Virus record (IMG/VR): IMGVR_UViG_3300029349_000001
Span: 1 to 64,000 of that record
Strand: one strand, 5' to 3'
Length of the DNA stretch: 64,000 nt
Source of the DNA: a virus
The translations under genes and the position numbers were made by a program. The notes under the pieces are model-generated. The model had not been told where the DNA came from. It worked only from the letters and a program-made list of their open reading frames with translations, and searched no databases. This document shows, one piece after another, positions 15,007-37,024 of this stretch. The first letter of the stretch is position 1, and each line of letters begins with the position of its first letter.

Positions 15007-15936
15007 ATGCCAGCCGCTAATCATAATATTACTATCGAACAAGGCTCCGCTTTTGAGATAGTATTTGAATTTATTAATAACAACAACGTCCCCATAGATC
15101 TTACTAATTGGTGTGCTCTATTACAATGGATAGACAGCGATGATAATACAGAAGTTTTTAATACCAATTATGATGGTGATGACTATAGAATGTTTGTGAA
15201 TAGCCTGGGTAAGATCACTCTCCAGATACCGGCTAAAATCACCAAAGATTACAACTTTACCTCTGCAACATACGACCTAGATCTACAAGAACCAAACGAG
15301 CAATATCCTAATAGTGGACTTAAAACATATAGATTAAGTACCGGTACAATTACTCTATTGAAGCGCAACACTCCGCCAGTTACAGCAGACTGTGCTAGTG
15401 TCAACTCGGACTTTGATATAGATACTTGTAATGTTGGTTGTGAAAATCTAGATCCTTATTCTGTAGTTTATGAAGGATCTTCTGTTGTGGTTGCTGATAA
15501 TACAACGACTACCTCTAGTATTAGTGTTACAGACTCTAGAACTATCGAAAATATAGATGTTGCTATTAATGGATTGAGACATTCTTCTCCGCAAGATCTA
15601 ATTTTTGTATTAGAATCTCCAAATAACTCATTAGATAGTGTGTTATTATCTATGAACAGCAAAATATCGAACTATAAGCCCGGTTTTAGTTTTGTATTTT
15701 CTGATAGAGCACCAGCTAATGTATATCTTAATAATGTTTTAAATAATAAGAGTTGTAGAATCACTAATAAGAGCACTACTCTTGGTCTTACTAATTTTGA
15801 TACTAGTGCTAGTTTTTCACACCTTATTGGTCAAACACTATCTGGCCTATGGAAGCTACATGTAATAGATAGCGACACCGGAGTAGCTGGAACTATTGAT
15901 GGATGGAAATTGATAATTACTTATTCGGATACTTGA
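15007..15936 (+). CDS. Virion protein: N-terminal baseplate-upper-like beta domain plus a proprotein convertase P-domain-like C-terminus
   Basis: ITIEQGSAF...PIDLT...YDLDL at the N-terminus; SSISV...IENIDVAINGLRHS...DL...LESP...GLWKLHVID...GTIDGWKL is the P-domain pattern. Confidence 0.7.
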   Translation: MPAANHNITIEQGSAFEIVFEFINNNNVPIDLTNWCALLQWIDSDDNTEVFNTNYDGDDYRMFVNSLGKITLQIPAKITKDYNFTSATYDLDLQEPNEQYPNSGLKTYRLSTGTITLLKRNTPPVTADCASVNSDFDIDTCNVGCENLDPYSVVYEGSSVVVADNTTTTSSISVTDSRTIENIDVAINGLRHSSPQDLIFVLESPNNSLDSVLLSMNSKISNYKPGFSFVFSDRAPANVYLNNVLNNKSCRITNKSTTLGLTNFDTSASFSHLIGQTLSGLWKLHVIDSDTGVAGTIDGWKLIITYSDT

Positions 15937-15939
15937 TAT

Positions 15940-16140
15940 ATGTTAACCAACAATATTATAAATCTTTTATATGCTTATGTGGTCGGTTATTTGCCCACCT
16001 TCGTTATTAACACAGATAATATCACGAATAGTAACGTAACTATAAAACAGGTAGTGGACTCCCAAGCAATCTTCATAACTCTGTCTGAAACGGCACAAAT
16101 CAAAAGCACACCAGATACTCCTCTATATACATCACTATGA
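15940..16140 (+). CDS. Hypothetical protein
   Basis: 66-aa ORF that fills the gap and overlaps the next start as ATGA. Confidence 0.5.
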   Translation: MLTNNIINLLYAYVVGYLPTFVINTDNITNSNVTIKQVVDSQAIFITLSETAQIKSTPDTPLYTSL

Positions 16141-16670
16141 CAAATCCTTTCGAAAATATTATTTCAGCAGAACTAAAACAAATCTATAAATATGCTATAG
16201 ATGAGGTACTATCGTCTCATGGATTAACCGTTCCCTGTTCTTTATATTACGATAAGCCATCTGCTTCTACATTTTGCAATAACTGTGTTATAGACCCAAT
16301 ATCTCAAATATCGTCTAATATATATAATTCTACTGGTCCTAGTCCTTTTCCTGAGAATACTATTTGTCCAGTGTGTGGTGGATCTGGTATGGTATCTGGT
16401 GAAAAAATGGAAATTATTAATTTGGGTGTTTTATTTGATAACAAATATTTTATAAGACCTATTGCTAATAGTGTTATTGGCTGGCCAAATAATAGTATAC
16501 AAACTATATGCGCCCATACCCTTGCTCATAAATTGCGAGCCGCTTCGAGACTAATGATCGGAGGGACTGCATCTCAATATAGTACGTATGAATATACCAG
16601 ACAATCCGATCCCCAACCTATTGGTTTTGGTGACACAAATTATATTGTCACTTTGTGGGCCACACAATGA
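16137..16670 (+). CDS. Putative head-closure protein with a Cys4 zinc finger
   Basis: 177 aa; CNNC...CPVCGGSG; position in the neck cluster. Confidence 0.5.
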   Translation: MTNPFENIISAELKQIYKYAIDEVLSSHGLTVPCSLYYDKPSASTFCNNCVIDPISQISSNIYNSTGPSPFPENTICPVCGGSGMVSGEKMEIINLGVLFDNKYFIRPIANSVIGWPNNSIQTICAHTLAHKLRAASRLMIGGTASQYSTYEYTRQSDPQPIGFGDTNYIVTLWATQ

Positions 16671-17311
16671 AAATAGAATTTAAATTATTAGAAAAAGATT
16701 CTGACATTGCTAATAGTATATTTGATGCTATCAAAGCTAGTCTTAGCGATGTTATGAATAGAGCAGAGCCAGAGATCCAAAGACGAGTAAAAGAAATTTT
16801 ATCTGATTCTTTAAGAACAGAACCAGAATATCAATCTTTGAAGTCTGGAATATTAAGAGCTGAATTTGGTATACAATATCCTGATACAGTTGATAAAATT
16901 GTTGAAAAAATATCCGAGACCGTTACTATAGAACACATACCGATTACTTTTACTGCTAGAGGCATTAAGGGCGGATTTAGATTAGTAGCAATAAAATCTG
17001 ATAATATTAGTGGCTTAATTGAAGACGCCGATGCTTTGGTTGCGGACGATGCAAGAGGTTATAAATTACCGTGGCTAGAATGGCTGTTATTGAGAGGTTC
17101 GGATAAAATTATTAAAAATTATGAAGTATCATTTGGAGCTTCTAAATATTCGCGTAGTGGCATGGCTCTGATGAAAGACTCGAAGTCTTCTTGGAGAGTG
17201 CCTCCGCAGTTTGCTGGTACGATTAAGAACAACTGGACCACAAGAGCCATCTCCAAAGCAGAAGATTCTATTAAATCTACTATCATAAGTACTATCGAGA
17301 ATTATTTATGA
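16655..17311 (+). CDS. Putative neck/tail-completion protein (real start possibly 16667)
   Basis: 218 aa; LPWLEWLL...GT..NNWTTRAI; position; ATGA overlap at 16667. Confidence 0.5.
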   Translation: MGHTMKIEFKLLEKDSDIANSIFDAIKASLSDVMNRAEPEIQRRVKEILSDSLRTEPEYQSLKSGILRAEFGIQYPDTVDKIVEKISETVTIEHIPITFTARGIKGGFRLVAIKSDNISGLIEDADALVADDARGYKLPWLEWLLLRGSDKIIKNYEVSFGASKYSRSGMALMKDSKSSWRVPPQFAGTIKNNWTTRAISKAEDSIKSTIISTIENYL

Positions 17312-18246
17312 CTAAATTTCATCATGTATATAATATAGGAGATAAAGGACCAGTAACTCTTCTAGAAGACAACATAAAGATGTTTCTAGATTGGTCTTTT
17401 TTAAATATTGGTGGGTTCGTTAATATTAAGATTCCAACCCAAAATATATCTACTGGTAATTTACATCAACTAAAACTATCTACAGATCCAGGCTTAACAG
17501 CGAATACCTCCTGGGAATCCCCAAAAAAAGACTGGGTATACGAGACAGGCATTGTTCATAATGGTATGTCGCCCATAAATATATCAGGCATTTATCTGAA
17601 TAACACCTTTTTACCATCTCCTACCGGATCTGGAGCATATGGCTATAAGATCAATTATCCTTTGGGTAAGATTAATTTTAACAATTCGGTTGGAGCAAAA
17701 AGCACTGTGGCGCTAGCATATAGTTACAGATATGTGCAAGTCTACAAAGCACACGACACTGTATGGTGGCAAGAATTTCAACAACAAACATATAATGCTG
17801 CTATGTCGAAAGCAAGTCCTAATAGCAATATTTCATCCGAACATAGAATACAAACCCCACTAATAGTGGTAGAATTAACAGATAGAACATATTTAAAGCC
17901 ATATCAGTTAGGATCTTCAGAAAATATCGTTTATCAAGATGTATTATTACATATATTTAGCGAAACACCCACTTATAGAAACTCCCTAGTAGACATGATG
18001 CTTCTACAAAAAGAGAAAAACCTACATTTGATAGATACTCAAAAAGTGATCAAAAATGGTGTTTTTAGCACTAATATTAATGGACAATTTAATCCTAATG
18101 CTTTAAATTATGATCAATTATCATACAATGCCGAATATTTTACAAATAGGTATAATATTAAAGATGCTATATTGTCTGAGACAAATACAATTTCTCCCAG
18201 CCTATATAGTGGTATAGTTCGTTGGACTTTGGAAATTTTTCCATAG
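17308..18246 (+). CDS. Putative tail terminator protein
   Basis: 312 aa, immediately upstream of the tail tube gene; PLIVVE...PYQLG...DVLLHIFSE pattern. Confidence 0.5.
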   Translation: MTKFHHVYNIGDKGPVTLLEDNIKMFLDWSFLNIGGFVNIKIPTQNISTGNLHQLKLSTDPGLTANTSWESPKKDWVYETGIVHNGMSPINISGIYLNNTFLPSPTGSGAYGYKINYPLGKINFNNSVGAKSTVALAYSYRYVQVYKAHDTVWWQEFQQQTYNAAMSKASPNSNISSEHRIQTPLIVVELTDRTYLKPYQLGSSENIVYQDVLLHIFSETPTYRNSLVDMMLLQKEKNLHLIDTQKVIKNGVFSTNINGQFNPNALNYDQLSYNAEYFTNRYNIKDAILSETNTISPSLYSGIVRWTLEIFP

Positions 18247-18259
18247 ATCAACTAAGGTT

Positions 18260-18272
18260 GGTGTACTATAAA
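18260..18272 (+). promoter_or_regulatory. Candidate late promoter (GGTGTA)
   Basis: 91 bp before the tail tube ATG. Confidence 0.55.
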
Positions 18273-18350
18273 CTAGATTACTTTTAATTTTATTCTCAGA
18301 ATACAATCAAAATAACTGTCGTACAAACACTCAATTAATGGAGTTCTCTC

Positions 18351-19448
18351 ATGCCAGCAAATAATAGAATTTACTATGCTAGTCAAGCAGTACAGTTACT
18401 TCCCTGCAATAGCGAGCTTTCCGCTCATTATTCTGATTGGTTAGTTCCACAGGGACTACAGAGCGTTGGCATGACAACAAATTTCAATCTAGAGCAGGTC
18501 TTCCAGCTCGGACAACTAGAGCTTTATGATAATCTTGAAGGAGTACCAGAAGTAGAAGTTACTCTCAATAAGGTTCTAGACGGAACTCCCCCACTTTATC
18601 TAATTTGCACAAATGGTAATTCCACATTCCCATATGCTAACGGAAGAGAAATTGCTGAAATCGTTAACAATCGTGTTTCTTTCCGTCTTGGTATTTGGCC
18701 AGACAACGTAACAGCCGCTACTGGCGCACCAGCCCACCAAGTAACTTGCAGTGGTATGTATCTATCACGATTTAGTTATACCATTCCTGTTGACGGCAAT
18801 GCTACCGAAGAAATCACACTAGTTGGTAACAACAAGGTGTGGAGTAGTGGATCGCAGATGAGTCTTGCCGAGTTTAATCCCAATGCTGGTAGATCACCCA
18901 CAGCTCCTAACGTAATGAGACGTTATAGTTTCGATACTGGAACTGTACTACCAACTGGCACAGCCGGTATTCCAATTCCAAGCGGCAGATCCGTTTCGAG
19001 ACCATATGTTCAGAACATTACAATTAGTGCTGACCTTGGAAGAGAAGCTATCAACGAACTTGGTTCTTTCTCTCCATACTTCAGATATGTTAACTTCCCA
19101 CTCGAAGTAACATCTGAATTTGAGGTTACAGCTAGTGACGGAGACAAGGTTGATGCTAATGACTTCTCCACAGTTAGTGGTTGCGGTCAGAACTTCACCA
19201 ACCTCCAGAACAAAGAAATCAAGGTTATTCTTTGCGGTACCGGAGCTGGTAGTAACAAGCTCATGTTGGATCTAGGTAAGAAGAATAAGCTAACTAGTGT
19301 TAACTATACTGGTGGAGACACCGGTGGTGGAAACGCTACAATTACTTATAGCTTCCAAACATTCAACAAGTTTGCTATGACAGCTAGTGGTACTTTTGCT
19401 GGCAGTAGTTGGGTAGACAACCAAGCTGACCAAGAGTTCTACAACTAA
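18351..19448 (+). CDS. Major tail (tube) protein
   Basis: 365 aa, beta-rich with two-fold internal similarity (GLQSVGMTTNF...VFQLG / VQNITISADL...INELG), codon usage suggesting high expression, located between neck genes and chaperones/TMP. Confidence 0.7.
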   Translation: MPANNRIYYASQAVQLLPCNSELSAHYSDWLVPQGLQSVGMTTNFNLEQVFQLGQLELYDNLEGVPEVEVTLNKVLDGTPPLYLICTNGNSTFPYANGREIAEIVNNRVSFRLGIWPDNVTAATGAPAHQVTCSGMYLSRFSYTIPVDGNATEEITLVGNNKVWSSGSQMSLAEFNPNAGRSPTAPNVMRRYSFDTGTVLPTGTAGIPIPSGRSVSRPYVQNITISADLGREAINELGSFSPYFRYVNFPLEVTSEFEVTASDGDKVDANDFSTVSGCGQNFTNLQNKEIKVILCGTGAGSNKLMLDLGKKNKLTSVNYTGGDTGGGNATITYSFQTFNKFAMTASGTFAGSSWVDNQADQEFYN

Positions 19449-19516
19449 GTAGTTAATTAGACGATTTTAGAGGCAGACATTAGGATTAGTGGTTTTACAA
19501 CCGGAGAAAGGACATT

Positions 19517-19669
19517 ATGGAAGAATTATTTAATATAATAGGAAAGCTGTACGTAGATATCTACAATACCCAAAAAATTATAGAACTACTACAAACTCAG
19601 CTTAAGGATAAGGACAGGGAAATATCTGAACTAAAGCAAAGGAAATCTTCTAAGGATGATAACGGATGA
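19517..19669 (+). CDS. Small coiled-coil protein (50 aa) missing from the ORF track
   Basis: Manual translation MEELFNIIGKLYVDIYNTQKIIELLQTQLKDKDREISELKQRKSSKDDNG; GGAGAAAGGA RBS; overlaps the next gene start. Confidence 0.7.
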   Translation: MEELFNIIGKLYVDIYNTQKIIELLQTQLKDKDREISELKQRKSSKDDNG

Positions 19670-20705
19670 TGTACGTATTGTTTTATATCGTATCTTGTCT
19701 GGTTCATTGTTTTTTCATGTAGATGGTCAAACATACGAATTTAGAAAGATTACGAATAAAACCAAATATGAGGCAGAAATTTTATATCGTCAAATTATTA
19801 ATGACGAGAAGTATAACGAATGGATAAGATCAGATAGTGCTGAGCAGATGATGATAAATTTAGGACTATGGACAAAAGACACTAATGATATGCTGAAGAA
19901 ACTAGAGAAGAGCATCGAAAATACTAAAGTAGAATTATTTAGTAATTTTTTATATCCAGAGAAAATTAAGAAAATAAGGAAAAGTCTGGATTCTTACAGA
20001 GCACAGCTAGACAAAGCCCTATCCGCTAAACAAAATTTCATAGTGTCTCATACTCTAGAAGGACATGCCGAAAACATCAAAAATGAATATATGGTGTGTC
20101 AGAGCTTGTACATGGACGACGATAGAGTATTTGATAGTCTAGATAGCATTAATGAAAGTGGTTCATATATGTATTTTAATGCTATAGTATCAGAGATCAA
20201 TAAGCATTCTATTTCTATGTCTCAATATAGAAAAATAGCTCGTAGCGATGAATGGAGATCTTATTGGAGTTGTAACAAAATCAATACATTTGAAGGATGT
20301 GTAGCTAATTGGACCGACGAACAACGTAGTTTAATTAATATCTCTAAAATGTATGATAGCATATATGAACACCCAGAATGTCCCAATGATAAGATTATCG
20401 AAGACGATGACGCATTAGACGGCTGGACAATAGTACAAAAAAGAAAGAACGACAAAAACAAGAATCAACAATCGATAGATGCTATTAATCCTAATTTAAA
20501 GAATGCTCAAGAAGTATTTCTCATGGCACAGAATAAAGAAGAAGTAGATAATATTATAGGACTTAATACTCCCGACGCTTTACATAGAATGAAACAAAAG
20601 AGAGCCGCGATAGATGCTGTTGGTACAATAGATGATATTAATCTGCCCGATGTTCAAGCAGAACTTAGGAACCAGACCAATCAACAAATTAAAAATAGGA
20701 AATAA
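19656..20705 (+). CDS. Putative tail assembly chaperone (paralog of 21011)
   Basis: 349 aa, between tube and TMP genes; shares GLW...H(T/S)xEGxAxN...Y(M/L)V with 21011. Confidence 0.5.
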   Translation: MITDDVRIVLYRILSGSLFFHVDGQTYEFRKITNKTKYEAEILYRQIINDEKYNEWIRSDSAEQMMINLGLWTKDTNDMLKKLEKSIENTKVELFSNFLYPEKIKKIRKSLDSYRAQLDKALSAKQNFIVSHTLEGHAENIKNEYMVCQSLYMDDDRVFDSLDSINESGSYMYFNAIVSEINKHSISMSQYRKIARSDEWRSYWSCNKINTFEGCVANWTDEQRSLINISKMYDSIYEHPECPNDKIIEDDDALDGWTIVQKRKNDKNKNQQSIDAINPNLKNAQEVFLMAQNKEEVDNIIGLNTPDALHRMKQKRAAIDAVGTIDDINLPDVQAELRNQTNQQIKNRK

Positions 20706-20708
20706 CTT

Positions 20709-21014
20709 ATGAGCATGAATAATGATGATATTCTATATAATATCGAAAAACGACTCAAAACAACAATGATAGGATCCATAGCAAAATTTGAAGAATTTTT
20801 TGGACATCTATGGGAGGAAGAAAATCCTAATATAGACCATTATGATAAATTATGGGAACAAGCTAGAACATCCATATTAAATAATGGAAATAATCAAATT
20901 AGACTTGCGCTTAATGAATTGTCTGATTATTTATATAATAGACGAAATTCCACGACCGTAAAACAAAAGTACCACTATAAGTTTAACTTTAGGAACAGAG
21001 GAGATAACGAATGA
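20709..21014 (+). CDS. Hypothetical protein
   Basis: 101 aa, tightly packed, ATGA overlap with the next gene. Confidence 0.7.
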   Translation: MSMNNDDILYNIEKRLKTTMIGSIAKFEEFFGHLWEEENPNIDHYDKLWEQARTSILNNGNNQIRLALNELSDYLYNRRNSTTVKQKYHYKFNFRNRGDNE

Positions 21015-21886
21015 AGACTAAGACTTTTACCGTAAAGCTAGAGGATAAGGACAGAGAGATTCTCGTAAAGACACCATCTTTAAATGATCAGCGAGAAGCT
21101 CAAAAGGTTTATAATCAAGCCTTTACAGACGCTATAAAGAGCAAGAGTGTGGTACGAGCCAAGCTCGATGATCTACTCAAAGATCAAGGACTATGGAGCG
21201 ACGAAAAACAGGCCCAATTTAACCTGCTCCAAAAAGAAATTCTAGACGGAGAAAAAAGACTAGCAAAGGGAGGATTTAGCTTAAATGAGGCTAAAGACCT
21301 AGCTATAGCCATAAAGGCCAAGAGAGATGAGATTAGAGATCTAATCAGTGTTAGAACATCTCTAGATAATCATAGTGCAGAAGGACAGGCCGATAATGCT
21401 AGATTTAATTACTTAGTATCGGTATGTGTGGTGTATAATGATTCAAAGGAACCTGTTTTTAAGGACATGGAAGATTATTTGAACAGATCGACAGAAGAAG
21501 TTTCACTATTGGGCGCTCAAAATTTGGCTAATATGCTTTATGGATTGGATAATGACTATGAAAGTAATTTACCAGAAAATAAGTTTCTTAAAAAATATAA
21601 GTTTGTTGACAATCAATTAAGACTTGTAGACAAGAAGGGTAGGCTGATAGACGCCGACGGTAGATTAATTGATGCCGATAACAGATTTATAGACGAAGAG
21701 GGTAACTTTGTAGATAAGTTTGGAAATAGGGTAGACAAAAATGGAGATTACGTTGTTGAGCCAGAGCCATTTTTGGATGAAAACGGAAAACCAATTATTT
21801 TAGATGAACCAAAAAATGAAACACCAACCACTCCATCACCAGAACCAGAGTCTACGGCTGTTTCAGAAGAAAAGTCGTCTCAGTAA
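21011..21886 (+). CDS. Putative tail assembly chaperone with 7-aa (I/V)DxxG repeats
   Basis: 291 aa, directly upstream of the TMP gene; GAGGAG RBS. Confidence 0.55.
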   Translation: MKTKTFTVKLEDKDREILVKTPSLNDQREAQKVYNQAFTDAIKSKSVVRAKLDDLLKDQGLWSDEKQAQFNLLQKEILDGEKRLAKGGFSLNEAKDLAIAIKAKRDEIRDLISVRTSLDNHSAEGQADNARFNYLVSVCVVYNDSKEPVFKDMEDYLNRSTEEVSLLGAQNLANMLYGLDNDYESNLPENKFLKKYKFVDNQLRLVDKKGRLIDADGRLIDADNRFIDEEGNFVDKFGNRVDKNGDYVVEPEPFLDENGKPIILDEPKNETPTTPSPEPESTAVSEEKSSQ

Positions 21887-21972: not shown

Positions 21973-24900
21973 ATGTCTACAGCTTTTAATTTAACAGCAC
22001 AGCTGAATCTTAGAGGACCAACCAATGTCAGGAATATTGTTTCTGGCATTAGAAGGCAATTAGGTAATATTACAGCAGACGTAAATCTAAGAATAGACCC
22101 TGCTGCTACTAGAAATCTAACCCAACTTAATACAGCTTTAACAAACTTTAACGCAACCCTTAGAACCACACAAACAAATGCCGCTAATACAGCGAATGCT
22201 CTAAGAGGTTTGGCCAATGCTATTAATGGAATAAATGCTAACAATCTACCAAGAAACATGACCAACATCGCCACTGCATCAAATAGAGCAGCACAGGCTA
22301 CTGGTCGAGTAACACAACAGGTAGGAGAAGCTCGTAATCAGATGGAAGAATTCGGTAGACAGTCTGCTCTAGCTGTTCGTCGTTTTGCTGCTTTTAGTAT
22401 TTCTGCCGGTATCATTGTTGGTTTTACAAATGCTATTAATAAGGGTGTTAGAGCTTTCGTTGAGTTTGATAAAGAATTAGTTAAATTACAGCAAGTTACT
22501 GGTGAATCTGCAAAGGGATTATCTGGTCTTCAGAAAACTATTGCGAATTTAGCTTCTGGTTTAGGTGTTAGTTCTTCCGAATTAATTAATGTTTCATCAA
22601 CATTAGCACAGGCTGGTTTGAGTGCTAGAGATACTGAAAAAGCTCTTAAGGCATTAGCACTAAGTTCTTTGGCTCCGTCATTCGATGATATGAATAAGAC
22701 GGTAGAAGGTAGTATCGCATTGATGAGGCAGTTCGGCATTAGTGCCGGTCAACTAGATCAAGCTCTTGGTTCTGTTAATGCTGTTGCTGCGAAGTTTGCC
22801 GTCGAAGCTAGTGATATTATTGCTGCTATTCAGCGTACTGGTGGTGTGTTCGCTGCTGCTAGTAAGGGAGTTAGTGAAGGCACCGATGCACTCAATGAGT
22901 TTATTGCTGTTTTTACCAGTATCCGAGCCACTACTCGTGAAAGCGCAGAAACTATCGCAACCGGTTTGCGTACTATTTTTACTCGTGTACAAAGAGGAGA
23001 AACCATAGAGGCTCTTAAGCAATATGGTGTTAATCTTACTGATTTAGAAGGCAAATTCGTTGGAGCTTATAAGGCAGTGGAACTTTTATCTAGAGGTCTT
23101 GGTCAGATTGATCCAAGAGATCTAAGATTCTCTCAAATTGTAGAAGAACTTGGTGGATTCCGACAGATCGGTAAAGTTATTCCACTTATTCAACAATTTG
23201 CTACAGCACAACAAGCATTAGCAGTTGCTCAACGTGGTCAAGGTTCTCTAGCAGAAGATGCTGCTATCGCCCAATTATCTCTTGCTAATCAGATAGCTAA
23301 AGTTAGAGAAGAATTTTTAACTCTTATTCGTGATATTGGTGGAACAGATACCTTTCAGACTATTGCTAAAAGCGCTTTAGGTTTAGCTAGTGCGTTAATC
23401 AAAGTAGCAGATAGTGTTAAGGGGGTATTACCAGTACTTGGTGTGGTTATGGCCATACGAGGTACTGCTGCCTTATCCAGTTATGCTAGAGGTTTTGCTG
23501 GTGGTATGGGTAATATGAGAGGTGGACGCAGAGCAGCGAGTGGGGGTTATATTAAATATGCTGCCGGTGGACAGGTGCCTGTGGCTTTAATGCCCGGTGA
23601 GGCTGTCATATATCCAGAAGCAGCAAAGCGTATTGGCACACCAACTCTACGTCGCATGAATTATGCTGATAAGAAGATGGCTAAGGGTGGTAAAGTAGGC
23701 ATGGTTCCAGGCACCGGCAATAGTGATAGTTTTTATACATCTTTGCCAGCTGGAAGCTTTGTAATTAGGAAGAAAGCTACCCAAGCTATGGGCGCTGGTA
23801 GAATTAATGATATAGCGTCTGGTAGACAAAAATTTGCAGTAGGAGGCGAAGCAAAATGGAGGGACGTAGAAGCCCAGATGAGAGGCGGTAGAGGACGACC
23901 AAGCAAAAATACTACTACAGTAGGAGAAGCTGTTGATAAGGTATCGTCTAAAGAATACAACAATAGAAAAGGCAGATTTAAGTCTGATTTTCCTTTTATC
24001 ATTAGAGGATTAAATAGAGCAGGAACTAAAGCTCAAATTAATGAAGAAGCAATATTAGATAAATATCTTAAAAAAGGAGTCAATGATCTTTCTAAAGCTA
24101 TTGTTAATCAAACACAAGGAAATATAACTGTTCCTTCTAGTGATATTGATATTCAAAATAAAGAAAGTATTTATGGAGGACTATTTGAAACCGCTTTATT
24201 AAAGATTAGTAAAAGATCAGCAGATAAAAAAGACAATAGTCAAAACTTTGACTTTCCAAGAGGTATAGGACCGATCTTGTCTAATATCTTTAGTGGTATG
24301 CCTCCTAGTATATCTACCGACGTTAAAAGAACAGCAGCAGCCAATGCTGGTATGAAATCTAATATAGCTAATAAATTAGCGAATGAAATGGCTTCCAATA
24401 GACTACCCAAACAGCCCATGCCGGTCGGAGTAGTATCTTTAAGCCCAATGGACTCTGCTATAGTTTCTAAAATTTCAGGAGCAGAAGTAAACAAGTTATT
24501 AAATACTAAGCTAAAACAAAAAAGTAAAAGTCAAAGAAGAGCTATTGGTGGACTTATTCAAAAGTTCGCCAAGGGAGGACTAGCAACTAGAAATGTCGGA
24601 TATATTGATAGTGATGAAATAACACAGCTATTAAAAGATAGTGTTAAAGGTCCGCTCATTAAGGCCGAAATGGATAGGCTAGGAATCAAAGGAGTAACAG
24701 AGTATAAAGAACACCTCGCCAACTTAGCAGCGACCAGAAGAAACGACGGAAGTCTCAAGAGATTAACGAATATCTTTGGTGTTGCTGGATCTGGCAAGAG
24801 CACAATGCTCCAAGGTGGATCAAGAGCCGCCGAAGCAGACAACGCCAGACTACGCAAAACCAATAGATATCCAGTATTAACAGAGCAAGATATATTGCGT

Positions 24901-27900
24901 TCAGATCAAATTGTTGACTCTACATCAGTAGCCGGTCCTACTCAAAGAACAGCATTAAGTTCTGCTGATAGAGTAATAGCTTTATCATCTAGAACTAAAG
25001 AATCGCAAGAAGCACTAAAGAAGAATAGAAAATCTAGAGATACTAGTGGTAGAAATTTATTTGGTAGAAGACCAGGATCTACCAAAAGCGCCCCATTAGA
25101 TAGTGGTATGGGAGAGGCATATATCGCCGCTAGTGGTGTTTCTGGTGTTGATCCTAAAAAAGTTGTTACAATGAAGTTGGGTGAAAAGTTTAGAAAGACC
25201 AGAACATCACAACCAACAGTAAGAACTCCAGATAAAACTGGTTTATTTTATGGTAATTTTGGACCCACAACAAAAGGCCACACTAGTGTCGTAAAAGAAG
25301 CAGAAAAAATGGGTATTCCTGCTAAAGACTTTGTTGCTTTAGTAGGTGGTGATACTCCTATAGATTATACAGATAAAGATCCTCATAGTAGACGTACTGC
25401 TATCTTCCCACAGAAAAGTTCTGATCAACTACCGTCACGACTAGGTATGGCTAGAGCAGCTTTTGGCGCTATGGGAGCCAACGTATCCGCCATGCCCAAA
25501 GGAAGCGGCCCAGGAAGTATTCCGTCTGCATTTAAAGTAGGAGAAGATAGTTATATTGTACCTAGAGGCAAGGGAGATATAGCATTTGTAGGTGACGAGA
25601 AAGAGTCTGGGTCTTTATCTAAATATGAAAAACTAGGATATGGCGTTAAATCTCTTCCAAGATCTGGCGGTATCAGTGGCACTAAAGCTAGAGAAGCCAT
25701 AGCAGCTAATGATATTCCAGCCTTGAAAAAGTTGCTAAGTCCAGCCGGATTCGAGTATGTGCAAAAACATATGGCTACTCTTCAACAGCGTCCTAAGTTG
25801 CTAGACGCTATCTTATCCAAGATTGAGAGAAATAGCGCATCTGGCAAAGGTACAGCAGGCAGACTATCACAGATTAAATCTCAGTTAGCAGACTTACCAT
25901 CTAGAGTTAGTAAAACTACACCAGCAGATGTTGTAGCAAAAATAGAGTCTTTAAGAAAAGAAAGAGATTCATTATCTAGTAAAGTTGGCAGATTACCATC
26001 TAAATTAATGTCTAGATTAGAACAAAGACAAAAATTTGCTGTTGGTGATGAAGTCAAGAAAAGAAAAATCAAAAAGATTAACCCAAATGACTACTCACAA
26101 AGTATTCAAAATCTACAGAATGATCCTAACAGTATTCTAAGACAGCAGGCTGTTGGTGTTGCTATTCTTCAGGGACCAAAGAAAGGTGTTGCAGATTCTG
26201 CTGTTAGTAAAAAGTCTATTATACAATCTGTTGGCAAACAATACAGCGATTTATTAGGTTCTGCTGTGTCCGGTGGTAGTATTGGTATTCAGAGAGAAGC
26301 CTTAAAGCCACAAGTATACAAAGACTTCAATGAAGGTATCGAAAATGGCCTAGTACAAGCCGTTAATACTGCTGTTGGTACCATTTCTAGTAAATATCCA
26401 GAACTACCCACTCCGGCAATCAACGGAGAAGAAGAAAGAAGAAAATATTTAAAGGGTGTTAATGATGCTGCTAAAGGCAATATGTTCGAAGAAATGCTAA
26501 CAAGCATGAGGAACAAAGGACAGTATGATGCCAACCCAGATCCACAAAGATCTTTTGACTTTGCACCAAATAAAGGCTCCGCTTTTGGATTGTCTAATAT
26601 ATTCGATAAAATTTCTTCTCTTTTATATGTAGACGCTAAGGCTAGCAATCCTTCTGATGCTGCTATTTCTAAGAAAATTGCGAACCAAACTCTTAGAGAT
26701 TTAGGGGTTATTAAGGGTAGAAAATCTAAGGATGTTCCAGATCAAGGTTCTATGGAGAGAGATATTAGTAAGAGGTTGCAGTCTGTTACTGAAGATTCTC
26801 CGTTATCATTACAAGATTTACAAAAAGAATTACCCAATGCTAAACTAAAAATGACCAACTCTATTGCCAAGAGTATGGGTCTTGTGGTTGATAGGGCCGG
26901 AGGTAAAACCAATTTTATTAGACCTAGAGTCGGACAACCTAGAAGACTAGCTAGAGGTGGTTTCGCTAATAGATTAGCGGTATCTGATCACGATATGACC
27001 GGAGCTGTGACAGCAGGAAAAGAAACTCCCAGTTTGTCACAATTTAAAGATCCCAAACTAGCAGTTCCAGATATAATGTCTGGTAGTCCAACTAAATTAA
27101 TAGGACTTCTTAAGCAATATGGAGCTACCCAGATACTTACTGCTAGAAGCGGCGGCCCTAAAGGAGAGATGAGAGATGCTCTTAAGAGATTTTATAACAA
27201 AAATGGTTTATTAATTCCAGACTCTAGAATAACTACATTAGGAGATCAGATCAATGATATTCCTACTCCAGAAAGAAAAGCACGAGCTTTATTTGATTTA
27301 GTTAAAAAATATGGTAAAGTAGATTTTTTTGATGATGATCCTAGAAATATAGAAGCTGCTAAAGACGTTAAGGGAGTAAATGCTAGAAGAGTTAAGGTTA
27401 GAAAAGCTTCTGGCGGATCAATTCCTTCCTCAATAGACAACTCATTGTCTCTTAATAGATCTGCTAAAGATAAAAGATTGGATTCTAAAAAATTAGCAGC
27501 TTTTCTTGGCGCTAAAACCACAACTTCTACTAAGCAACAAGAACTAGCAGAACGATTAAAAGACCTTGGTGTATCAGCTCCCTCTAAACCAAATTATGAA
27601 GAATTACTAAAAGGCCTAAAAGGATATGCAAAAGGAGGAGAAGTACCAATAGTTGCTCAAGAGGGAGAATATGTTATTAACAGGAAATCTGCAAAGGCTA
27701 TAGGATATGGTAATTTACATGCTTTAAATAAATATCATACTGGTGGAATAGTACAAAAATTTGGCGCCGGAGGACCGCTGGACTCCGCTATGGCCTCAAT
27801 GTCTGCCAAAGATGCTGCTAAGCTAAAGGTTTCTATTAGTAAAAATGCTAAAGCCTTTGATCAGTTAGAGAAAGGCGTTAAGGGTTGGCCAATAGACGCG

Positions 27901-30900
27901 GTACAAGCAGCTATGAAAAAACTAGCAAGAACACTAGAACGAGGAGACAAAACCTTTAAGTTTGATAATAAGAACTATAATAAAAACAATCCCGCAACAA
28001 GACAAAACAAAAAAGAAAGAGTCGGACTAAAGGGCAAGCCAGCCGGTACAGGAACATCAAAAGCTTCTACCAATGAAGCCAATTTTGAAGCAAATAAAGT
28101 AAAAATGATTGCTGATTTACAAAAATATGAAAAAGCACAATACGACAAAGAGAGAAAAAAGGGAAAAACAGCACAAGAAGCCAGAGAGTCGTCTAAAGCA
28201 GCAGCAATAGCTCGCACAAAACAAATAGCACAACCAATGTCTAAACAACAAGAAAGAGCGGTTACTGCACAAGCTATTCGTAAAGCTAGAGCATCTGGAG
28301 CAAATAATCAGGATGCAAAAAGATCAGGGCAAAATGCTTTAAATAATGCTAGAGCAAAACAACAAGCACAATCTCAAGGAGCTGCGATATTCAATACCGC
28401 CTCGGTGACCGGAGATAAAACGTCTTTAAGAAACGCCCTCGGTGGATACAACCCAGCTTCTGCCGCTAGAGCCGGAGGAGGAACCAGAACAGGCGGCGGA
28501 GGAGGAACAGGAGCAGGTGGTGGAGGATCATCTAGACGAAGAAGATCGTCTGGAGGAGGTCAGCAACCAGATAGGGATAATAATGGTCGTATAATGGGTA
28601 TGGGAAGATTAACTCAAGCTGGTTTTGGTATTAGCATGATGGGCGGTCTTGGTAGTCAGTTCTTTAATCCAGAATCTAGCGCATCAAATGCTGCGAATGC
28701 TGCTTTTACAGAAAGTTTTACTAGTACTATTGGTATGGGAGCGACCGTTGCTGGTAGTATAGGAGACTTGCTTAGTGGTAGTGGAGAAGATAACAACAGA
28801 AGAAGACCATCCAGAAATTCTCGCAACAGAGGAACATCAACTAGAACGAGACCACAAGCTTCTCCGTCGAGTCGAGGAAACAGTAGAAGCAGCGGCCCAA
28901 GGGTATCGTCTGGCAGCTCCGGTAGTGGCGACGGTAGTGGCTCAGGCATGGGAGTACTGGGAGGACTTGGTGCCGTACTGGGAGTTGTTGCAGTAGGAGG
29001 ACTTGCTTTAGCGGAGGGGTTGAAGGCCGCTCACAATGCTGCTAGAGAATTCACTATCAACCTAGCTAATAATAAACTACAAGAGTCATTAGAAAAAGCG
29101 AATAAGTCTGTAGAAAAATTTAGTAATAATCTCAAAGACCGAACAGCAGAGACCCAAGCGAAACGAGATACTCTAGATGTCGTTAAGGCTACCGATGCTT
29201 TAGACGCAGCTTCTTCAAAACCAGAAGCAGGATTATTTAATCTTGGAGATGCTATGTCCGGAGATAAGGGCAGTTTTGAGCGTAGTCAAATTCTTAATAA
29301 GAGGGGCATATCCGCATATCTTAGCACAACTAATATGTTTGGGGGAGAGAACGCAGCAAAAAATCAAGCTGCTCAATTTTCGACACTAATTCCACAGCTA
29401 GCATCTGAAAAATCCAAAAGATACACAGGAGCAGCAGAATCCTCCACTTCGTTCCTAGAATCAAAATTCCGTTCTGGCTCTAGTATAGACGAGATGAAGA
29501 AAGATAAAGACCAGTTTAGTAATCTCACAAAAAGCCTAGCATTAGCGGATGCTGCGATTCAACAACAGATTATGACTGTTGAAAATTCTACCACACTCAA
29601 TGATGCACAAAAGGCTACCCTTAAAAATAGTATCATAGCTACCAATGCTGAAACCAAAGCTAGAGAAATACAGACTAAAGTATTGAGAGAAATGGCTCTT
29701 GAAAGTCTTAATAAGACTACAATAATTTTACAAAATAGTCTCGAAAGAATGTTCCAGAACATGGAGCAAGCTATTGCTTCTAATGCATATGCATTGGATA
29801 AACTTACTGCTAGCGCAGACCTAGCATCCGCTTCCTTGTCCGGTTCTGCTAAAGTAGGATCGGTAAAACTAGATAGTATTAATACCCTACAGAACCCAAG
29901 GGCAAATAGCGGACAACCTATGAGATCCGCAGCTGATCAAGCAGCATCTATGTTTGGAAATGAAGCCCCGGCTATTAAGTCTATATTACAAGTTGCTTCT
30001 TCTATGGAAGATGCTGTAATGTCTACTATTAACAGTACTCTAAAAAATAATCCTGGTGCTACCAATGAACTTGTTGGTGGGTCTATAGATAAATCTATAT
30101 TTAAAGTATTAACCGATCTTAAATTACCTCCTGACTTGAGTTCCAAGCTATCTAGTGAAGTTGGTTTAGCTATTAAAGATATGAGAAAGTCTGGTGAAGA
30201 CAAGGTAGATTTTAGTCAGCTAGTTGAAAAAATACCACAACTCGGCAGAGTACTAGATAGTGCAAAAAGAGCGCAAGAAGTCGCTATTAAATCACTAGAA
30301 AATTGGCAAAATGCTTTAAATGAATATGCTAATACGACTAATCAATTAATTGATATACAAATAGATAGTAATCAAAAACTTAGAAGAGCTACAGATATAC
30401 TAATCGGTGGTCAAAATGAATTAGCTAATGCTTTTGGTAAATCGGCTTCATTACAAAGCGCTGTAAATAACTCCAAAGCCAAAACAGCTTCCCAAACAGG
30501 AGGACCAACCGACCCATCAGACATCCGTAGAAATATACAAAGTCTTGAATTAACAAGACAATCAGAGCAGGCTAGGTCAGATACTGCATCCCAAAAGGGT
30601 TTTGGTGGTAAAGATGAATTCATGATGATGCAAGAAAGGCTAAAAAATACTAGTGTTGCATTAAGAGAAAATTATGATGCTCTTAAGAACATGGCGGACA
30701 ACACAGATGTTGCCAGCGCCGCCCTAAATAAAATTTCTGAAATTAGACAACAAAGACAGGCGGGAGTCGGTTTTGCTGAAAAGCTAGTATCCAGTACTCC
30801 CAAAGAATTAGCAAATCTTAATATGTCAATGGCCAGACTGCAAAACAACATGGCTGGTGGAATGAATATGTCCAATGCTAGCCAAAGAGCTGGCGACCTA

Positions 30901-33900
30901 CAGCTGTTCAACGAACTGGCTCCTTTGCTGGGAGATAAGCAATCAGAGATGAAAGCTAATGTTTTAGAAAACATGCTCAAAGAATCTGGAGTTGGAGTGA
31001 GTCCAATGATGCAGGAGGTTCTGACATCTCTAAGGAATCCGGAGGCCGATCCGGCCATGCAAGAAGCTATTGCTACTTATAGAGAAGCTATCGGTCTTCA
31101 AGCAGAGGCCAATAAACAATTAGTTTTTCTTAATACTCAAATGGCAGAGAATAGTGCGGATATAGCTGCTAATAAATTGGCTCAATCTATGCGTGGTGTT
31201 ATACTAAAATTTGAAAGCCAGCAATTATTAGATATTAATAATAACATCAAAAATTTAATTGCAGTAGTAGAGGCCAAAGGTGGCTTGGCGCCGGGCGCTG
31301 CTCCGGCCGCAGGAAAAGCTCGTGGAGGAATGATATATGCCGCGGCTGGACAGTTGGTTGACTTTCAACCAAAAGGAACAGATACCGTTCCTGCTATGTT
31401 AACACCCGGTGAATTTGTGGTTAATAGAAAATCTACACAAAAACATTTACCATTACTTAAATCTATTAATAGCAACTCATATTCTAATGGTGGTAAAGTA
31501 GGATACTATGCTTATGGAGGATTGGTATTCGGAGATCCTTGGCAGAGAGAAGATAAAGCAGATGCTCTTAATAGGTCGGCCTCTGTTGAAAACGAAACAC
31601 CAGATAGACATCCTGATCTACTAAAAAATATGAGTAAAAGTAAGGGAGATTTGTCCAAATATTTTGAAGATATCTTTTCTGTTCAAGGGGCGTTTTATGC
31701 TGCCAATAAAAACTCTGGCCCTGTATCTGATTGGTTTTTTGACAAATTTACCGGCTCATTTTCTGGGCTACAACCACAAGCTGTTTTGGGTTCCTCATAT
31801 TCTAAGTTTGTTGCTTCTGTCGGTCCGGGAGTCGTCGATTATACTAATATTACCAGATCAGGAAATGTTAGAACTCCTAAAATTGGTAATATCCCAACCC
31901 TGGAATTCTTTTCAGATATAGTTTCTCAAACAGCGGAACAGAAAAAAATCAAAGAATCACAAATAAAAGAATATTATGGTGTGCTAGACAATATACTTAA
32001 ATTTATGCCAAAAACAGAGATATCTGGCGATAGTATCAAAGTTGATGGGAAAAATATAATTATAGATAGTCTTCTTGATCCAAAATCTAGACCAGACTTA
32101 TCTCCCCAGGTTGATGTTACTTCAACAGCCGATGGCTACAAACAATTGATAACCGTATCTAATCTTTCTAAAAAAACGGGTAATTTGCATGGTTTATATA
32201 CTAAAAATAATATAAATACTATTCATGCAAATAGTGATGATATGGGTGGAATCGGGAATATATATGGTATTAATGCACAGAATAGGGATCTAAGCGGATA
32301 TCCATATACTAGGATAGTAGCCGGATTGGATAGTATGAGATATGCTGGCCTAGGAGGCTTCTCTTCTATGGATATAGCTGGAGACCTTGCTTCTCAGACA
32401 ACTAATTATGACAATTCCATGTTCGATGGTGATATGGCACAAATTAAACAGAGACTATCTAATGCTCAGATAGTGAAAGCTAATCTAGAAAGAACAAAAG
32501 AACTATTATCTGGCGGTAACGTTAAACTTCAAGAGAGTGAAACATCAGAAGCTAATAGAAACTATGTAAATAAACTACAACAATTACTTAGCGGTTCGGT
32601 ATTTAAAGCGACTTTTTCCGAAGCCGAAATAAAAGGAAAAGATTCTGTCAAGCCACCCATAACTCTGTATAACCTAGATGGTAATGATTGGGATTCTAGA
32701 GTAGATGTTCTTGACAAGGATGCTTCTGTTACAAAAGGAACGTACGCTGGTAAAAAGGGCTCTAGCTGGATCCCTGTTGGATCAAGAACCATGGGCGTGG
32801 GAACAGTACCTGATCAATTTAGTATTCAAAAATGGTTTCCTTGGGTTGGGTCTGGATTTAATTCTACTATTTTTGATGATCTTAAAAACAAATATAATGC
32901 ACAGAATCCAAACAATGTAAAGGTAACTCCAGGATCATATGCTGATGATATAATGGCATTTAATTATAAAAACATAGAAGGACCTATGTTCGATGCTAAT
33001 AAAAAGATGACCAAAAACAAATACAAGTTTACAACAGTTTCGCTGGATCAAAATACTGTAAACGAGAAACTGAATCCGTTCCGAGACTTAGTTGATCAAA
33101 ACCTTCTTCCACAAGATCCAGAAAAATCCGAGATTTACGCAAACACTCCGGGTGATCTAATAGGTATGATCAAAAATTTGGTCAATAATACTATTCTAAG
33201 AACTCAACAAAACACTTTATCATTTGGTAGTTCTATTAAGAGATTATCAGCAGCAGACAAAGCTATAGCAGACCTAGATTTTGCTCAACAAACAAAAGAT
33301 AATGCTTATTTACTTAATTCTATAGCACCAGGATTTCAATACGAAGCAAAATTATATGGAGACGAACTAAGAAAGAGAATAGCACAACAAAAACAAGATC
33401 AACAAGCAGCAGCTGGAGAAAAAGGGATAGCCAATAAAGCAAATCTTCAAGACCTACCAGAAAATCCGCTATTGTTAGCCGAACAAGCGAGAGGCATAGT
33501 TAGTAAAGTCTTATCTCCTGTTTCTGGAATTTTATCTGCATACAATATTAAACTCTCTCCTATTAGAGTAGCATCTCAAATTGCTCCATACGGTAATTAT
33601 TTATTACAGGCTCAACAGTTTTTTGGTGATGCTGTAACTCAAAAATTTAAAAACAACAAGAAGGGAATAGACCAAAGACTATGGAATGTCTGGGGAGCGC
33701 TCGGGGCCTCTGGTAAAGTATTTGAAAAACTAGGAGCGGGAGATAAGCAGGGGCTACAAACCCTATTAGGTTCTGCTGCTAGTACTCTAGATAGTACAGA
33801 TTTAGGAGATATGGTTGTACGATATGGTCAATTGTTAGCGGCTCAAGGAGCAACATTCGCTGGTACAGCTGGGCTATCTACTCCGAAAGACGTACTAAAG

Positions 33901-35067: not shown

Positions 35068-36501
35068 ATGATCAAATCCCCCATAAGAGTCGTTGAAAAT
35101 ATAGGATCTTATTGCCATGAGACTAATAATCGATTAGTTTTGGGCGAGATTCTAGATGGATATGCTGGACTATCTATTAATGACCATAATACATATATAC
35201 CATATATATGCAAGTCTTTTGATCTTAAAAACTGGGAGATAGGTATTGGTCTAGTGTCTGTTGTGGACTCCAAAGTTACTGTGGAGCGTGTTAGGGTAAT
35301 CAAAAAATCTTCAGAAAGTTATCAATTTGTTGGTAATAATAATCTATTTTATGTGTTTGCTAATGAATATAACTTTAATACTGGACTAAATAATTGTGTA
35401 GCATTAGAAGATCAAACAACTCTAGTTAATATTAAATGTACTTATTTAAAAACCAATGATTCTAAAGACACGTATGAACTACCCAGCAGCACAAATAATC
35501 AAGGATTAGCTATAGACTTTAAGAACACATCAGACTCAACTCTATATCTGCATAATTCAGATGAAAATGAGACATATGCTTGTGGACCCGGAGAATATCT
35601 TAAAGTTATAAGTGATGGAAATAGTTGGATTAAATTATACAGTGTGGTTGATTCTTTGGGTGTTGTGTCTTTATCAGCAGAACAACCGAACTATTTTAGT
35701 ACACAAAATCTAACAGCTTCTGGAATATACGGAGCCATACAATATAATAATAACGGCTCTATAGATGGTTCTAATCTAGTAATTAGCAGCGGATTATTAT
35801 TGCTAGGCAGTAGCTCAACGAACCCCTCGTCTGCTCAAAATATCATTCCATTATCTCTCTCTAATAAAGATACAATTTTTAATAACAACAATACTTCTGG
35901 CAATTTTATTGTTAAGGGTCTTGGTGATAAGAATTTAATTTTTACAAAAGATGGCAGACTAGGACTCAATATTCCCAGCGGTTCATTACCTCAAACAGCA
36001 TTGCACGTATTAAGTTATGCTTGTCAAGAAGGTATTAGGTTGGAAAATAGAAATTCCTGCTATCCTGCAAATCTGACCCTATATCATAAGCCTTCTACTT
36101 TGCCATCCAACGGCAGTATAGTATCAACCATTAATCTATCATCTAAAAACTCCGCCAATGCACAAGTTAATTACTCACAACTAAGATCCAAAATCATTAA
36201 TTCTGATTCTGTATCTAGTAGTGGCGAATTTGCTGTAGCAATACAGAATAACGGATCGTTAATAGAATCATTAAGAATTAATCCAACTGGATTTATAGCA
36301 TCTGTTAATACCAATTCTATTGTAGTAAATAATAATGGTATTCAATTAAACGGATCTTTAAGAACTAATCAGATTGCTACTAGTGGTAGCTTTATGATGA
36401 CTGATGGTAGTGGAAATTTAGTTTTGACAAGCCTTAATAATAGTCCTATAATAAGCTTGTTAGATGGTGATGTTGTCACATTTACTGGAGTATGTTCATG
36501 A
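35068..36501 (+). CDS. Tail fibre/appendage-like protein
   Basis: 477 aa; N-terminal RV.E...WEIGIG fibre-attachment-like segment, G.IQYNNNG and GRLGLN..PQTALHV motifs. Confidence 0.6.
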   Translation: MIKSPIRVVENIGSYCHETNNRLVLGEILDGYAGLSINDHNTYIPYICKSFDLKNWEIGIGLVSVVDSKVTVERVRVIKKSSESYQFVGNNNLFYVFANEYNFNTGLNNCVALEDQTTLVNIKCTYLKTNDSKDTYELPSSTNNQGLAIDFKNTSDSTLYLHNSDENETYACGPGEYLKVISDGNSWIKLYSVVDSLGVVSLSAEQPNYFSTQNLTASGIYGAIQYNNNGSIDGSNLVISSGLLLLGSSSTNPSSAQNIIPLSLSNKDTIFNNNNTSGNFIVKGLGDKNLIFTKDGRLGLNIPSGSLPQTALHVLSYACQEGIRLENRNSCYPANLTLYHKPSTLPSNGSIVSTINLSSKNSANAQVNYSQLRSKIINSDSVSSSGEFAVAIQNNGSLIESLRINPTGFIASVNTNSIVVNNNGIQLNGSLRTNQIATSGSFMMTDGSGNLVLTSLNNSPIISLLDGDVVTFTGVCS

Positions 36502-37022: not shown

Positions 37023-37024
37023 TC

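Follow-up and report, generated by a model that had tools for sequence, protein, structure and literature searches.

A P-loop kinase-fold domain and a HIGH-type adenylyltransferase form one conserved module inside the giant tape-measure protein of an uncultured phage

Tape-measure proteins set the length of the phage tail and help to breach the cell envelope, and some carry wall-degrading domains. What would a kinase joined to a nucleotidyltransferase do in such a protein? The question is raised by the window analysed here, a stretch of 64,000 nucleotides from an uncultured phage (positions 1–64,000 of the IMG/VR virus record IMGVR_UViG_3300029349_000001). Positions 21973–35016 of its plus strand form a single open reading frame (ORF), P0001, of 4,347 amino acids (aa). 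The PF10145 (PhageMin_Tail) core was found in this ORF at aa 188–392 (Pfam, E 5.6e-22), and the tape-measure PHROGs 4211, 28, 167 and 1533 match it as well; hence the ORF encodes a giant tape-measure protein. A sequence-only reading of the window had placed a fused P-loop kinase and HIGH-family nucleotidyltransferase at 24755–25775 and proposed that they constitute a NadR-like unit for NAD+ salvage. This span indeed lies in frame within the tape-measure ORF, but the actual unit is larger and covers aa 870–1330, that is, 461 residues encoded by positions 24580–25962 of the plus strand, on which all parts of the module lie.

The conservation counts given here refer to an alignment of 87 homologous modules that are 31–95% identical. 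The N-terminal half of the module is a P-loop kinase-fold domain (aa 873–1081, positions 24589–25215, residues 4–212 of the structural model). Near its start is the strand G-Y-I-D-x-D (aa 876–881, 24598–24615; modelled as residues 2–9), in which G876, D879 and D881 are each present in 87/87 copies. The P-loop, or Walker A motif, GVAGSGKST (aa 936–944, 24778–24804) follows about 55 residues downstream, with K942 and S/T943 retained in all 87 copies and G941 in 86. The motif D-I-L-R (aa 973–976, 24889–24900) contains a candidate catalytic aspartate and a basic residue: D973 is invariant (87/87) and is followed by a hydrophobic residue, any residue and R/K976 in 74/87 copies. We take this D-x-x-R/K motif to be comparable to D35/R38 of the T4 polynucleotide kinase (PNK) and D67/R70 of the zeta toxin. 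The basic segment KNRKSR (aa 1017–1022) runs into an arginine-rich 'lid' (aa 1019–1032, 25027–25068; R1019, R1022, D1023, R1032), where R1019 is conserved in 72 copies and replaced by lysine in 10 more, R1022 is conserved in 85 and R1032 in all 87. Altogether, the kinase half has eight highly conserved arginines (72–87 of 87 copies). The segment IVDST (aa 980–984) had been taken for a Walker B-like motif, which does not hold across the family: the aligned copies have IVDST, VIDST, LILTS or IALTS, and the trailing T/S-S alone is kept. Its aspartate varies; better candidates for catalytic acids are D973 and D879/D881.

The C-terminal half is a HIGH-type adenylyltransferase domain (aa 1086–1272, 25228–25788, model residues 217–403). 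Its segment GLFYGNFGPTTKGH (aa 1090–1103, 25240–25281) ends with the first signature G-N-F-G-P-T-T-K-G-H, a (H/T)xGH motif (aa 1094–1103, 25252–25281), where G1094 is found in 87 copies, P1098 and H1103 in 86, G1102 in 85 and T1100 in 82. After the segment AFVGDEK (aa 1204–1210) comes the second signature R-x-x-G-I-S-G-T-x-x-R (aa 1230–1240, 25660–25692), which includes most of GISGTKAREAI (aa 1233–1243, 25669–25701) and belongs to the stretch that aligns to MJ0951 (3gmi) and CitC; R1230, S1235 and R1240 are each conserved in 87/87 copies and T1237 in 86/87. The module ends with a helical extension (aa 1273–1330, 25789–25962; modelled helices 388–460), at the start of which is the invariant R1273. 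The residues found in all 87 copies further include R1141 and R1156, in addition to D879, D881, D973, R1032, R1230 and R1273. All motifs quoted in the sequence-only reading are thus at their places within one tape-measure ORF, and the P-loop and transferase signatures are near-invariant in modules down to 31% identity, which argues that they are not chance occurrences. One homologue (P0028, L002:2940–4343) has a weakened P-loop, AVAAAGKT, and TPAH replacing TxGH, with the remaining module kept; it is possibly a decaying or regulatory copy.

Folding the module as a single sequence gave an unusable model (predicted local distance difference test, pLDDT, 45.6). AlphaFold2 run on an alignment of 31 sequences (A3) gave a pLDDT of 87.6 and a predicted template modelling score of 0.83 over all 461 residues, with the two domains in a defined arrangement as one compact unit. 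Extra beta elements at model residues 300–340 and a long helical tail are seen in the module. The transferase domain combines the (H/T)xGH and ISxTxxR motifs with the Rossmann-like fold, as do members of the HIGH-signature nucleotidyltransferase superfamily. Motifs, conservation and fold agree on the fusion of a P-loop kinase-fold domain with a (H/T)xGH–ISxT nucleotidyltransferase within the tape measure. Judged from its sequence and the predicted structure, aa 870–1330 appear to be one folded, catalytically competent and seemingly active bifunctional enzyme, in which the P-loop kinase fold is packed on the HIGH-type adenylyltransferase.

The module is widespread in proteins of the same type. 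A HMMER search with aa 870–1330 in 1.8 billion representative proteins identified 91 protein clusters, of which 72 had E ≤ 1e-30. With few exceptions these proteins are 2,000–7,000 residues long and are matched over the whole 461 residues in one stretch; the short matches are fragments. Thirty additional copies were collected from metagenome contigs. All 24 giant homologues found by a word-indexed search have a precomputed PF10145 match, and 77 of the 82 giant homologues (those with 2,500 aa or more) have the N-terminal tape-measure core in common. Among these proteins, 82/82 contain the kinase half and 81/82 the transferase half, which shows that the two halves form one unit. The kinase (aa 873–1081 in P0001) precedes the transferase (aa 1086–1272) in all homologues, so the domain order, reversed with respect to NadR as the sequence-only reading had it, is constant. 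No convincing free-standing form of 240–850 aa was found, and the word-indexed searches gave fragments alone. One candidate for such a form (P0104, 334 aa) was rejected: encoded on a contig of 2.4 kb, it starts within the lid segment of the kinase and is therefore probably a piece. The module was found neither by tblastn in 50,697 phage records (1e-5) nor in scans of IMG/VR and of GTDB, in the latter of which each prokaryotic species was represented by one genome. The label of one homologue gives a Sphingobacteriia metagenome-assembled genome as its source, a weak hint at the host. We conclude that the module is restricted to giant tape measures and is a fixed part of one lineage of them from uncultured phages.

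Such conservation bears on the possibility that the two domains are structural or inactive relics, that is, mere filling or plugging material of a tape measure that is too long, or that their activity is confined to the producing cell during assembly. A folded 50-kDa unit would be hard to accommodate in the lumen of the tail tube, one copy has the degenerate motifs AVAAAGKT and TPAH, and delivery of the module into a cell is our supposition. We nevertheless consider this explanation very improbable, since the catalytic residues of both domains are retained in 82–87 of 87 copies down to 31% identity, which is not expected of a spacer; activity in the producing cell alone would be compatible with these data. 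The conservation of the module, catalytic residues included, in about 90 clusters implies that a portion of the tape measure either arrives in the cytoplasm and is active there or is active in the producing cell. Kinases and adenylyltransferases need ATP, and the periplasm has none, so these two places, the cytoplasm of the infected cell and the producing cell, are the ones where the module must act.

The position of the module within the protein is relevant to its possible delivery. A tape measure is ejected with its C-terminal end first and its N-terminal part last, just ahead of the DNA. The module lies in the N-terminal third of P0001 and may enter the cell by this route. Further downstream, a Gly/Arg/Ser-rich low-complexity run (aa 2168–2191) is followed by two glycine-zipper-like, glycine-rich hydrophobic segments (aa 2205–2231 and 2325–2350; window 28474–29022 region), which are possible membrane-inserting parts of the tape measure. 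All enzyme-like domains are upstream of these segments.

To which family does the transferase belong? An exhaustive structural search by VIA-align yielded NadD (4rpi, Z 13.4, root-mean-square deviation (rmsd) 2.6, 154 aligned residues), NadM (Z 13.3), the archaeal nicotinamide mononucleotide (NMN) adenylyltransferase, NMNAT (1f9a, 13.1), and PPAT (12.8). Lower scores were obtained for NadR (6gye, 10.6), TmcAL (5y0n, 10.0, 181–184 aligned), ATP sulfurylase (9.3), FAD synthetase (8.7), the TmcAL-family protein MJ0951 (3gmi, 8.4), HldC (8.0), TagD (7.9) and the sulfurylase half of human PAPS synthase (1x6v, 7.0). VIA-align on the top 1,000 chains of Foldseek, where NadD 1yul had E 7.9e-5, ranked the NadD of M. 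abscessus first (5deo_D, Z 14.5, rmsd 2.6, 155 aligned), effectively tied with PPAT 6b7a (Z 13.5). The transferase matches 200 chains at Z ≥ 8. The top fold matches, NadD, NMNAT, NadM and PPAT, extend over the whole core (Z 12.8–14.5, rmsd 2.5–3.0, 145–160 aligned) with an identity of 13–19%. Since NadD and PPAT are tied, the fold is silent on the substrate. The comparison with NadR, NadD, NadM, PPAT and TagD that the sequence-only reading had proposed thus brings NadD and NMNAT near and leaves the sugar-phosphate enzymes far away, but it does not separate PPAT from NadD. A sugar-phosphate or glycerol-phosphate cytidylyltransferase was rejected (TagD Z 7.9, HldC 8.0, and an hhalign probability of 4.3%, with no score, for domain II of RfaE).

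Sequence profiles give another ranking. The family alignments for hhalign were built from Pseudomonadota genomes; single sequences from E. coli or T4 aligned in the motifs alone, and a GTDB scan with E. coli NadR returned only copies at least 90% identical, unsuited to a profile. CitC was the best match (96.1%, score 67.9, E 3.1e-9, 165 columns), followed by the NadR-type NMNAT (94.9%, 56.4, 155 columns), the NadM NMNAT (90.8%, 48.2, 159 columns), CoaD (89.6%, 48.2, 164 columns) and NadD (51.9%, 36.7). PPAT is therefore below the NadR-type and NadM NMNATs here, and TagD and HldC (by fold) and RfaE domain II (by profile) are distant; the outcome that would have refuted the sequence-only reading, with CoA or sugar-phosphate enzymes as the closest matches, was not seen. 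The CitC profile consisted of four sequences; when all families were subsampled to four sequences, CitC and NadR stayed first, and NadM was mostly above CoaD and NadD, with some overlap among the three. The ranking was made without TmcAL, as 251 Pseudomonadota genomes had no TmcAL match. A search of the PDB with the module alone (phmmer) gave no match. The A3 profile found MJ0951 best (9.6e-6), then Plasmodium NaMNAT (5llt, 6.5e-4) and 9x6f (1.1e-3), the phage NadR-like enzyme Bas30_86 (PMC13464706), which shares the T-R-G-H form of the motif. Matches of the 31 members of A3 to the Pfam families HIGH_NTase1_ass (28/31, best E 1.1e-5) and CTP_transf_like (17/31) are all below the family cut-offs, and weak NCBIfam matches are spread across NadD, CoaD, NadR and NadM (nadR_NMN_Atrans in 5/31, TIGR01510 (CoaD) in 6/31). 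The separate halves match only 'cytidyltransferase' families in PHROGs (E > 0.01). Atlas language-model neighbours of the transferase half are viral cytidylyltransferase-like clusters of about 190 aa, some labelled Citrate_ly_lig, and BFVD contains many phage 'cytidyltransferase-like' proteins, with one match labelled 'Citrate lyase ligase' (TM 0.61). By its profile and modelled fold, the transferase is a true adenylyltransferase of the HIGH type that uses ATP, and within the superfamily it belongs with NMNAT, CitC and PPAT.

One alternative is a ligase of the CitC/TmcAL type. Such an enzyme would adenylate a carboxylate, e.g. acetate, and transfer the acyl moiety onto a host protein, a cofactor or a tRNA, with a thiol or an amine as the acceptor; the role of the P-loop domain would be to modify this target as well or to control the reaction, and the module would be an injected modifying enzyme rather than a cofactor synthase. 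The hhalign match to CitC includes the long R..ISGT..R..I..gd...l..l.P block, MJ0951 is the best sequence match in the PDB, and HIGH_NTase1_ass is the Pfam family recovered, below its cut-off, in most members. The Atlas and BFVD labels point in the same direction, and the fragment P0104 even exceeds the Citrate_ly_lig cut-off. TmcAL has the most aligned residues of all fold matches, and the TmcAL and 3gmi alignments reach the C-terminal helices (model residue 436–438). Their Z scores, however, are well below the 13–14.5 of NadD, NMNAT and PPAT, and the small size of the CitC profile detracts from its first rank. An additional domain is present in CitC (N-terminal) and in TmcAL (tRNA-binding); counterparts of these were not identified, with no test aimed at them, and neither CitC nor TmcAL is known to us to cooperate with a P-loop kinase. 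On balance, we find this explanation rather unlikely.

The kinase half is more difficult to place. Its best VIA-align match, taken from the two-domain model, is the Neisseria zeta1 toxin (6epg_B, Z 8.4, rmsd 4.1, 156 aligned), a score near the background quoted by the tool; UMP kinase (6.2), AK6 (5.9) and a polynucleotide kinase (4gp6, 5.9) follow, also near background. Language-model neighbours in Atlas belong to AAA_33/Zeta_toxin clusters (0.90–0.92). In hhalign comparisons with AAA_33, AAA_28 (the ribosylnicotinamide kinase (RNK) of NadR), CoaE, Zeta and T4 PseT, about 21 P-loop columns are confident and nothing beyond them; AAA_28 and the C-terminal half of NadR each give 21–22 such columns. 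Zeta reaches 25%, and T4 PseT, with the motifs alone aligned, is the best single-sequence match at 46%. The Pfam families Zeta_toxin and AAA_33 have no match in the module at E ≤ 10. On the model, this half has a fold like that of P-loop kinases, but no family could be detected for it.

The likeness to zeta toxins opens an alternative in which the transferase acts first and the kinase second, so that an ADP-linked compound is made and then phosphorylated. Possible models are PPAT with dephospho-CoA kinase (CoA synthase), ATP sulfurylase with APS kinase, and AvrRxo1/zeta-type kinases that act on NAD or UDP-sugars. The outcome could be CoA synthesis; alternatively, an injected toxin could shut down the host by turning its NAD+ or UDP-GlcNAc into a dead-end phosphorylated product. 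Human PAPS synthase has the kinase-then-transferase domain order, as the module does. The zeta toxin is the best fold match of the kinase and the Atlas neighbours agree with it, the many invariant arginines suit a nucleotide substrate, and PPAT scores well in both fold (Z 13.5) and profile (89.6% over 164 columns). Zeta-like kinases are also fused to MuF virion proteins among phage polyvalent proteins (PMC5512222). On the other hand, neither Pfam nor hhalign extends a match to Zeta_toxin, CoaE or AAA_33 past the P-loop, the Z score of 8.4 is near the search background by the tool's own note, and ATP sulfurylase has Z 9.3 only. AvrRxo1 is absent among the matches listed, a list filled by transferase matches. 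We hold this order of reactions to be possible and on the unlikely side.

Domains around the module were compared as well. Two weakly paralogous domains flank it (window 23890–24582 and 25960–26892; BLASTP 26% over 122 residues, E 2e-4) and share the pattern G-x-F-E...FDF...LSNIF...D-x-K, which by its residues is compatible with a PD-(D/E)xK nuclease. About 340 residues downstream of the module is a HAD-like domain (AVSDHDMT ... FFDDDPRN; aa 1669–1792, window 26977–27348), for which Pfam gave no match. Of the 82 homologous tape measures, 49 have the first flanking domain, 17 have the second and 3 have the HAD-like domain; hence all three are optional, and the HAD-like domain is a recent add-on rather than a partner. 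The obligate pairing of kinase and HAD phosphatase of the T4 Pnkp type is thus not seen, and a PNKP-like kinase plus HAD was set aside for this reason.

A further alternative is the processing or repair of nucleic-acid ends. Here a PNK-like 5'-kinase would join with the flanking nuclease-like domains and the HAD phosphatase downstream to mend or alter the ends of RNA or DNA, e.g. of a cleaved host tRNA or of the entering phage DNA, with the transferase acting on nucleic acid. The kinase half has D-x-x-R/K after strand 2, as in PNK-type kinases; 4gp6 and T4 PseT are among its matches; the flanking domains are paralogous and nuclease-like; the HAD-like domain has DxD...DD; and the transferase has the tRNA-modifying TmcAL among its relatives. 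The PNK likenesses are weak, and the counts of 49, 17 and 3 in 82 speak against an obligate set. RNA and DNA ligases have a different, lysine-adenylate fold, and no HIGH-type enzyme is known to us that seals or adenylylates nucleic-acid ends. We therefore regard end processing as quite improbable.

Our best single guess for the role of the module, held tentatively, is NadR-like synthesis of NAD+, because the fusion of a kinase with an adenylyltransferase follows the logic of NadR and because NadR-like counter-defence in phages has a precedent. The module would be made together with the tail as a fixed part of the tape measure, and at infection it would most likely be ejected from the virion as part of the tape measure, before the DNA. 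The kinase could then phosphorylate a nucleoside-type precursor, e.g. nicotinamide riboside, and the transferase could adenylylate NMN to NAD+, a two-step, ATP-dependent synthesis of a dinucleotide cofactor. NAD+ might thereby be supplied early in infection or against NAD+-depleting defences, similarly to the free-standing NARP3 enzyme. The analysis shows the fold, the motifs and their conservation, the linkage of the two domains and their confinement to tape measures; we infer delivery into the cytoplasm, the order of reactions and the substrate, and with them a pre-packaged role in counter-defence. The sequence-only claim of a NadR-like two-step unit is partly supported: the transferase resembles the NMN/NaMN adenylyltransferases (NadD Z 14.5, NadR-type NMNAT 94.9%), and the kinase half, which by profile comparison matches RNK in the P-loop alone, shows nothing specific to RNK.

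Several observations weigh against NAD+ synthesis. The kinase half has no RNK-specific signal: about 21 P-loop columns align, and its best fold match is a zeta toxin. The eight conserved arginines suggest that an anionic nucleotide would suit the kinase better than nicotinamide riboside. CitC is above NMNAT in the profiles (96.1%; 67.9 vs 56.4), the best PDB and Pfam sequence matches are of the TmcAL type, and by fold PPAT and NadD are on a level (13.5 vs 14.5). The domain order is opposite to that of NadR. Virions contain few copies of the tape measure. A Pfam scan (E ≤ 1e-3) of the 20 smaller ORFs of the window, the large structural ORFs not being scanned, gave no match and thus none of PnuC- or Nampt-like type, and NARP3 requires the PnuC transporter (PMC13464706). 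Finally, NADase defences yield nicotinamide and ADP-ribose, not nicotinamide riboside, according to a preprint (bioRxiv 10.1101/2024.02.11.579819). We speculate that the phage ships a working two-enzyme unit in its tape measure that makes NAD+, or makes or alters another cofactor, and that enters the cell with the first protein to exit the tail, before phage gene expression. Such a unit would act as a metabolic counter-defence that is pre-emptive and borne by protein, and it would represent tape-measure cargo of a new class, active in the cytoplasm; as a whole, this scenario is rather unlikely.

The remainder of the tape measure and its neighbourhood show further features. The 14-residue peptide VPAMLTPGEFVVNR occurs twice in exact copies (aa 3139–3152 and 4168–4181; window 31387–31428 and 34474–34515), each behind a GG-rich linker, so a small domain may have been duplicated towards the C-terminus of the protein. 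Nine of the ten ORFs adjoining the tape measure (15007–21886 and 35068–37768) have no Pfam match at E ≤ 0.01; the sole match is a proprotein-convertase P-domain at the end of the ORF at 15007–15936. The tail genes of this phage are very distant from described families.

How does the module compare with known systems? A NadR-like counter-defence of phages, with a free-standing enzyme, has been described before: NARP3 (2026), which consists of the NadR-like enzyme Bas30_86 and PnuC, restores NAD+ against Sir2-HerA (PMC13464706), and jumbo phages have fusions of a HIGH transferase with a P-loop kinase for NAD+ synthesis (PMC7824862). The new element is the location inside a tape measure. Like NadR and Bas30_86 (PDB 9X6F, 9X6H; PMC13464706), the module unites a HIGH-type adenylyltransferase and a P-loop kinase in one polypeptide, with the NadR-type NMNAT profile at 94.9% and the Bas30_86 match at E 1.1e-3, where the T-x-G-H form is common to both; both are of phage origin. 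In contrast to NadR and Bas30_86, its domains are reversed, and its kinase half shares, by profile comparison, only the P-loop with RNK. Bas30_86 is a free early gene with a proven counter-defence role, whereas the module, a putative enzyme, is one part of a virion protein of 4,347 aa. For PnuC, the partner in NARP3, no match was found by Pfam at E ≤ 1e-3 among those 20 smaller ORFs of the window that were scanned. CitC and TmcAL (HIGH_NTase1; 5Y0N, 3GMI) have the T-x-G-H and R..ISGT..R..I..gd...l..l.P blocks in common with the module but a lower fold Z (10.0 and 8.4 vs 13–14.5). NadD, archaeal NMNAT, NadM and PPAT are its top fold matches over the whole transferase core, from which it differs by an identity of 13–19%, the added beta elements (300–340) and the helical tail.

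Two further systems resemble the module in their carrier. The zeta-toxin-like kinases of phage polyvalent proteins (Iyer et al. 2017, PMC5512222) also ride on a virion protein, and they agree with the best fold match and the Atlas neighbours of the kinase half. The module differs from them by the absence of sequence-level membership in Zeta_toxin, by the pairing with a HIGH transferase, and by its carrier, a tape measure instead of MuF; the term 'tape measure' has 0 occurrences in the text of PMC5512222. In full-text searches of the literature, no paper came up that describes a kinase, an adenylyltransferase or other ATP-dependent enzymes of cytoplasmic type within a tape measure. Tape-measure-related cargo effectors of contractile injection systems (Sle1; PMC13277306, PMC11126660) likewise use a tape-measure scaffold with exchangeable domains that is ejected from a tail-like machine. 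Those belong to bacterial injection systems and have other functional domains, while the module is part of a true phage tape measure and has enzyme domains of a metabolic type. If its product is NAD+, the NadR-like counter-defence of NARP3 would extend to a virion-delivered form; if it is a zeta-like or CitC-like modifier, it would be a new injected effector. In either case, the module is a defined construct of 460 residues whose activity can be directly assayed.

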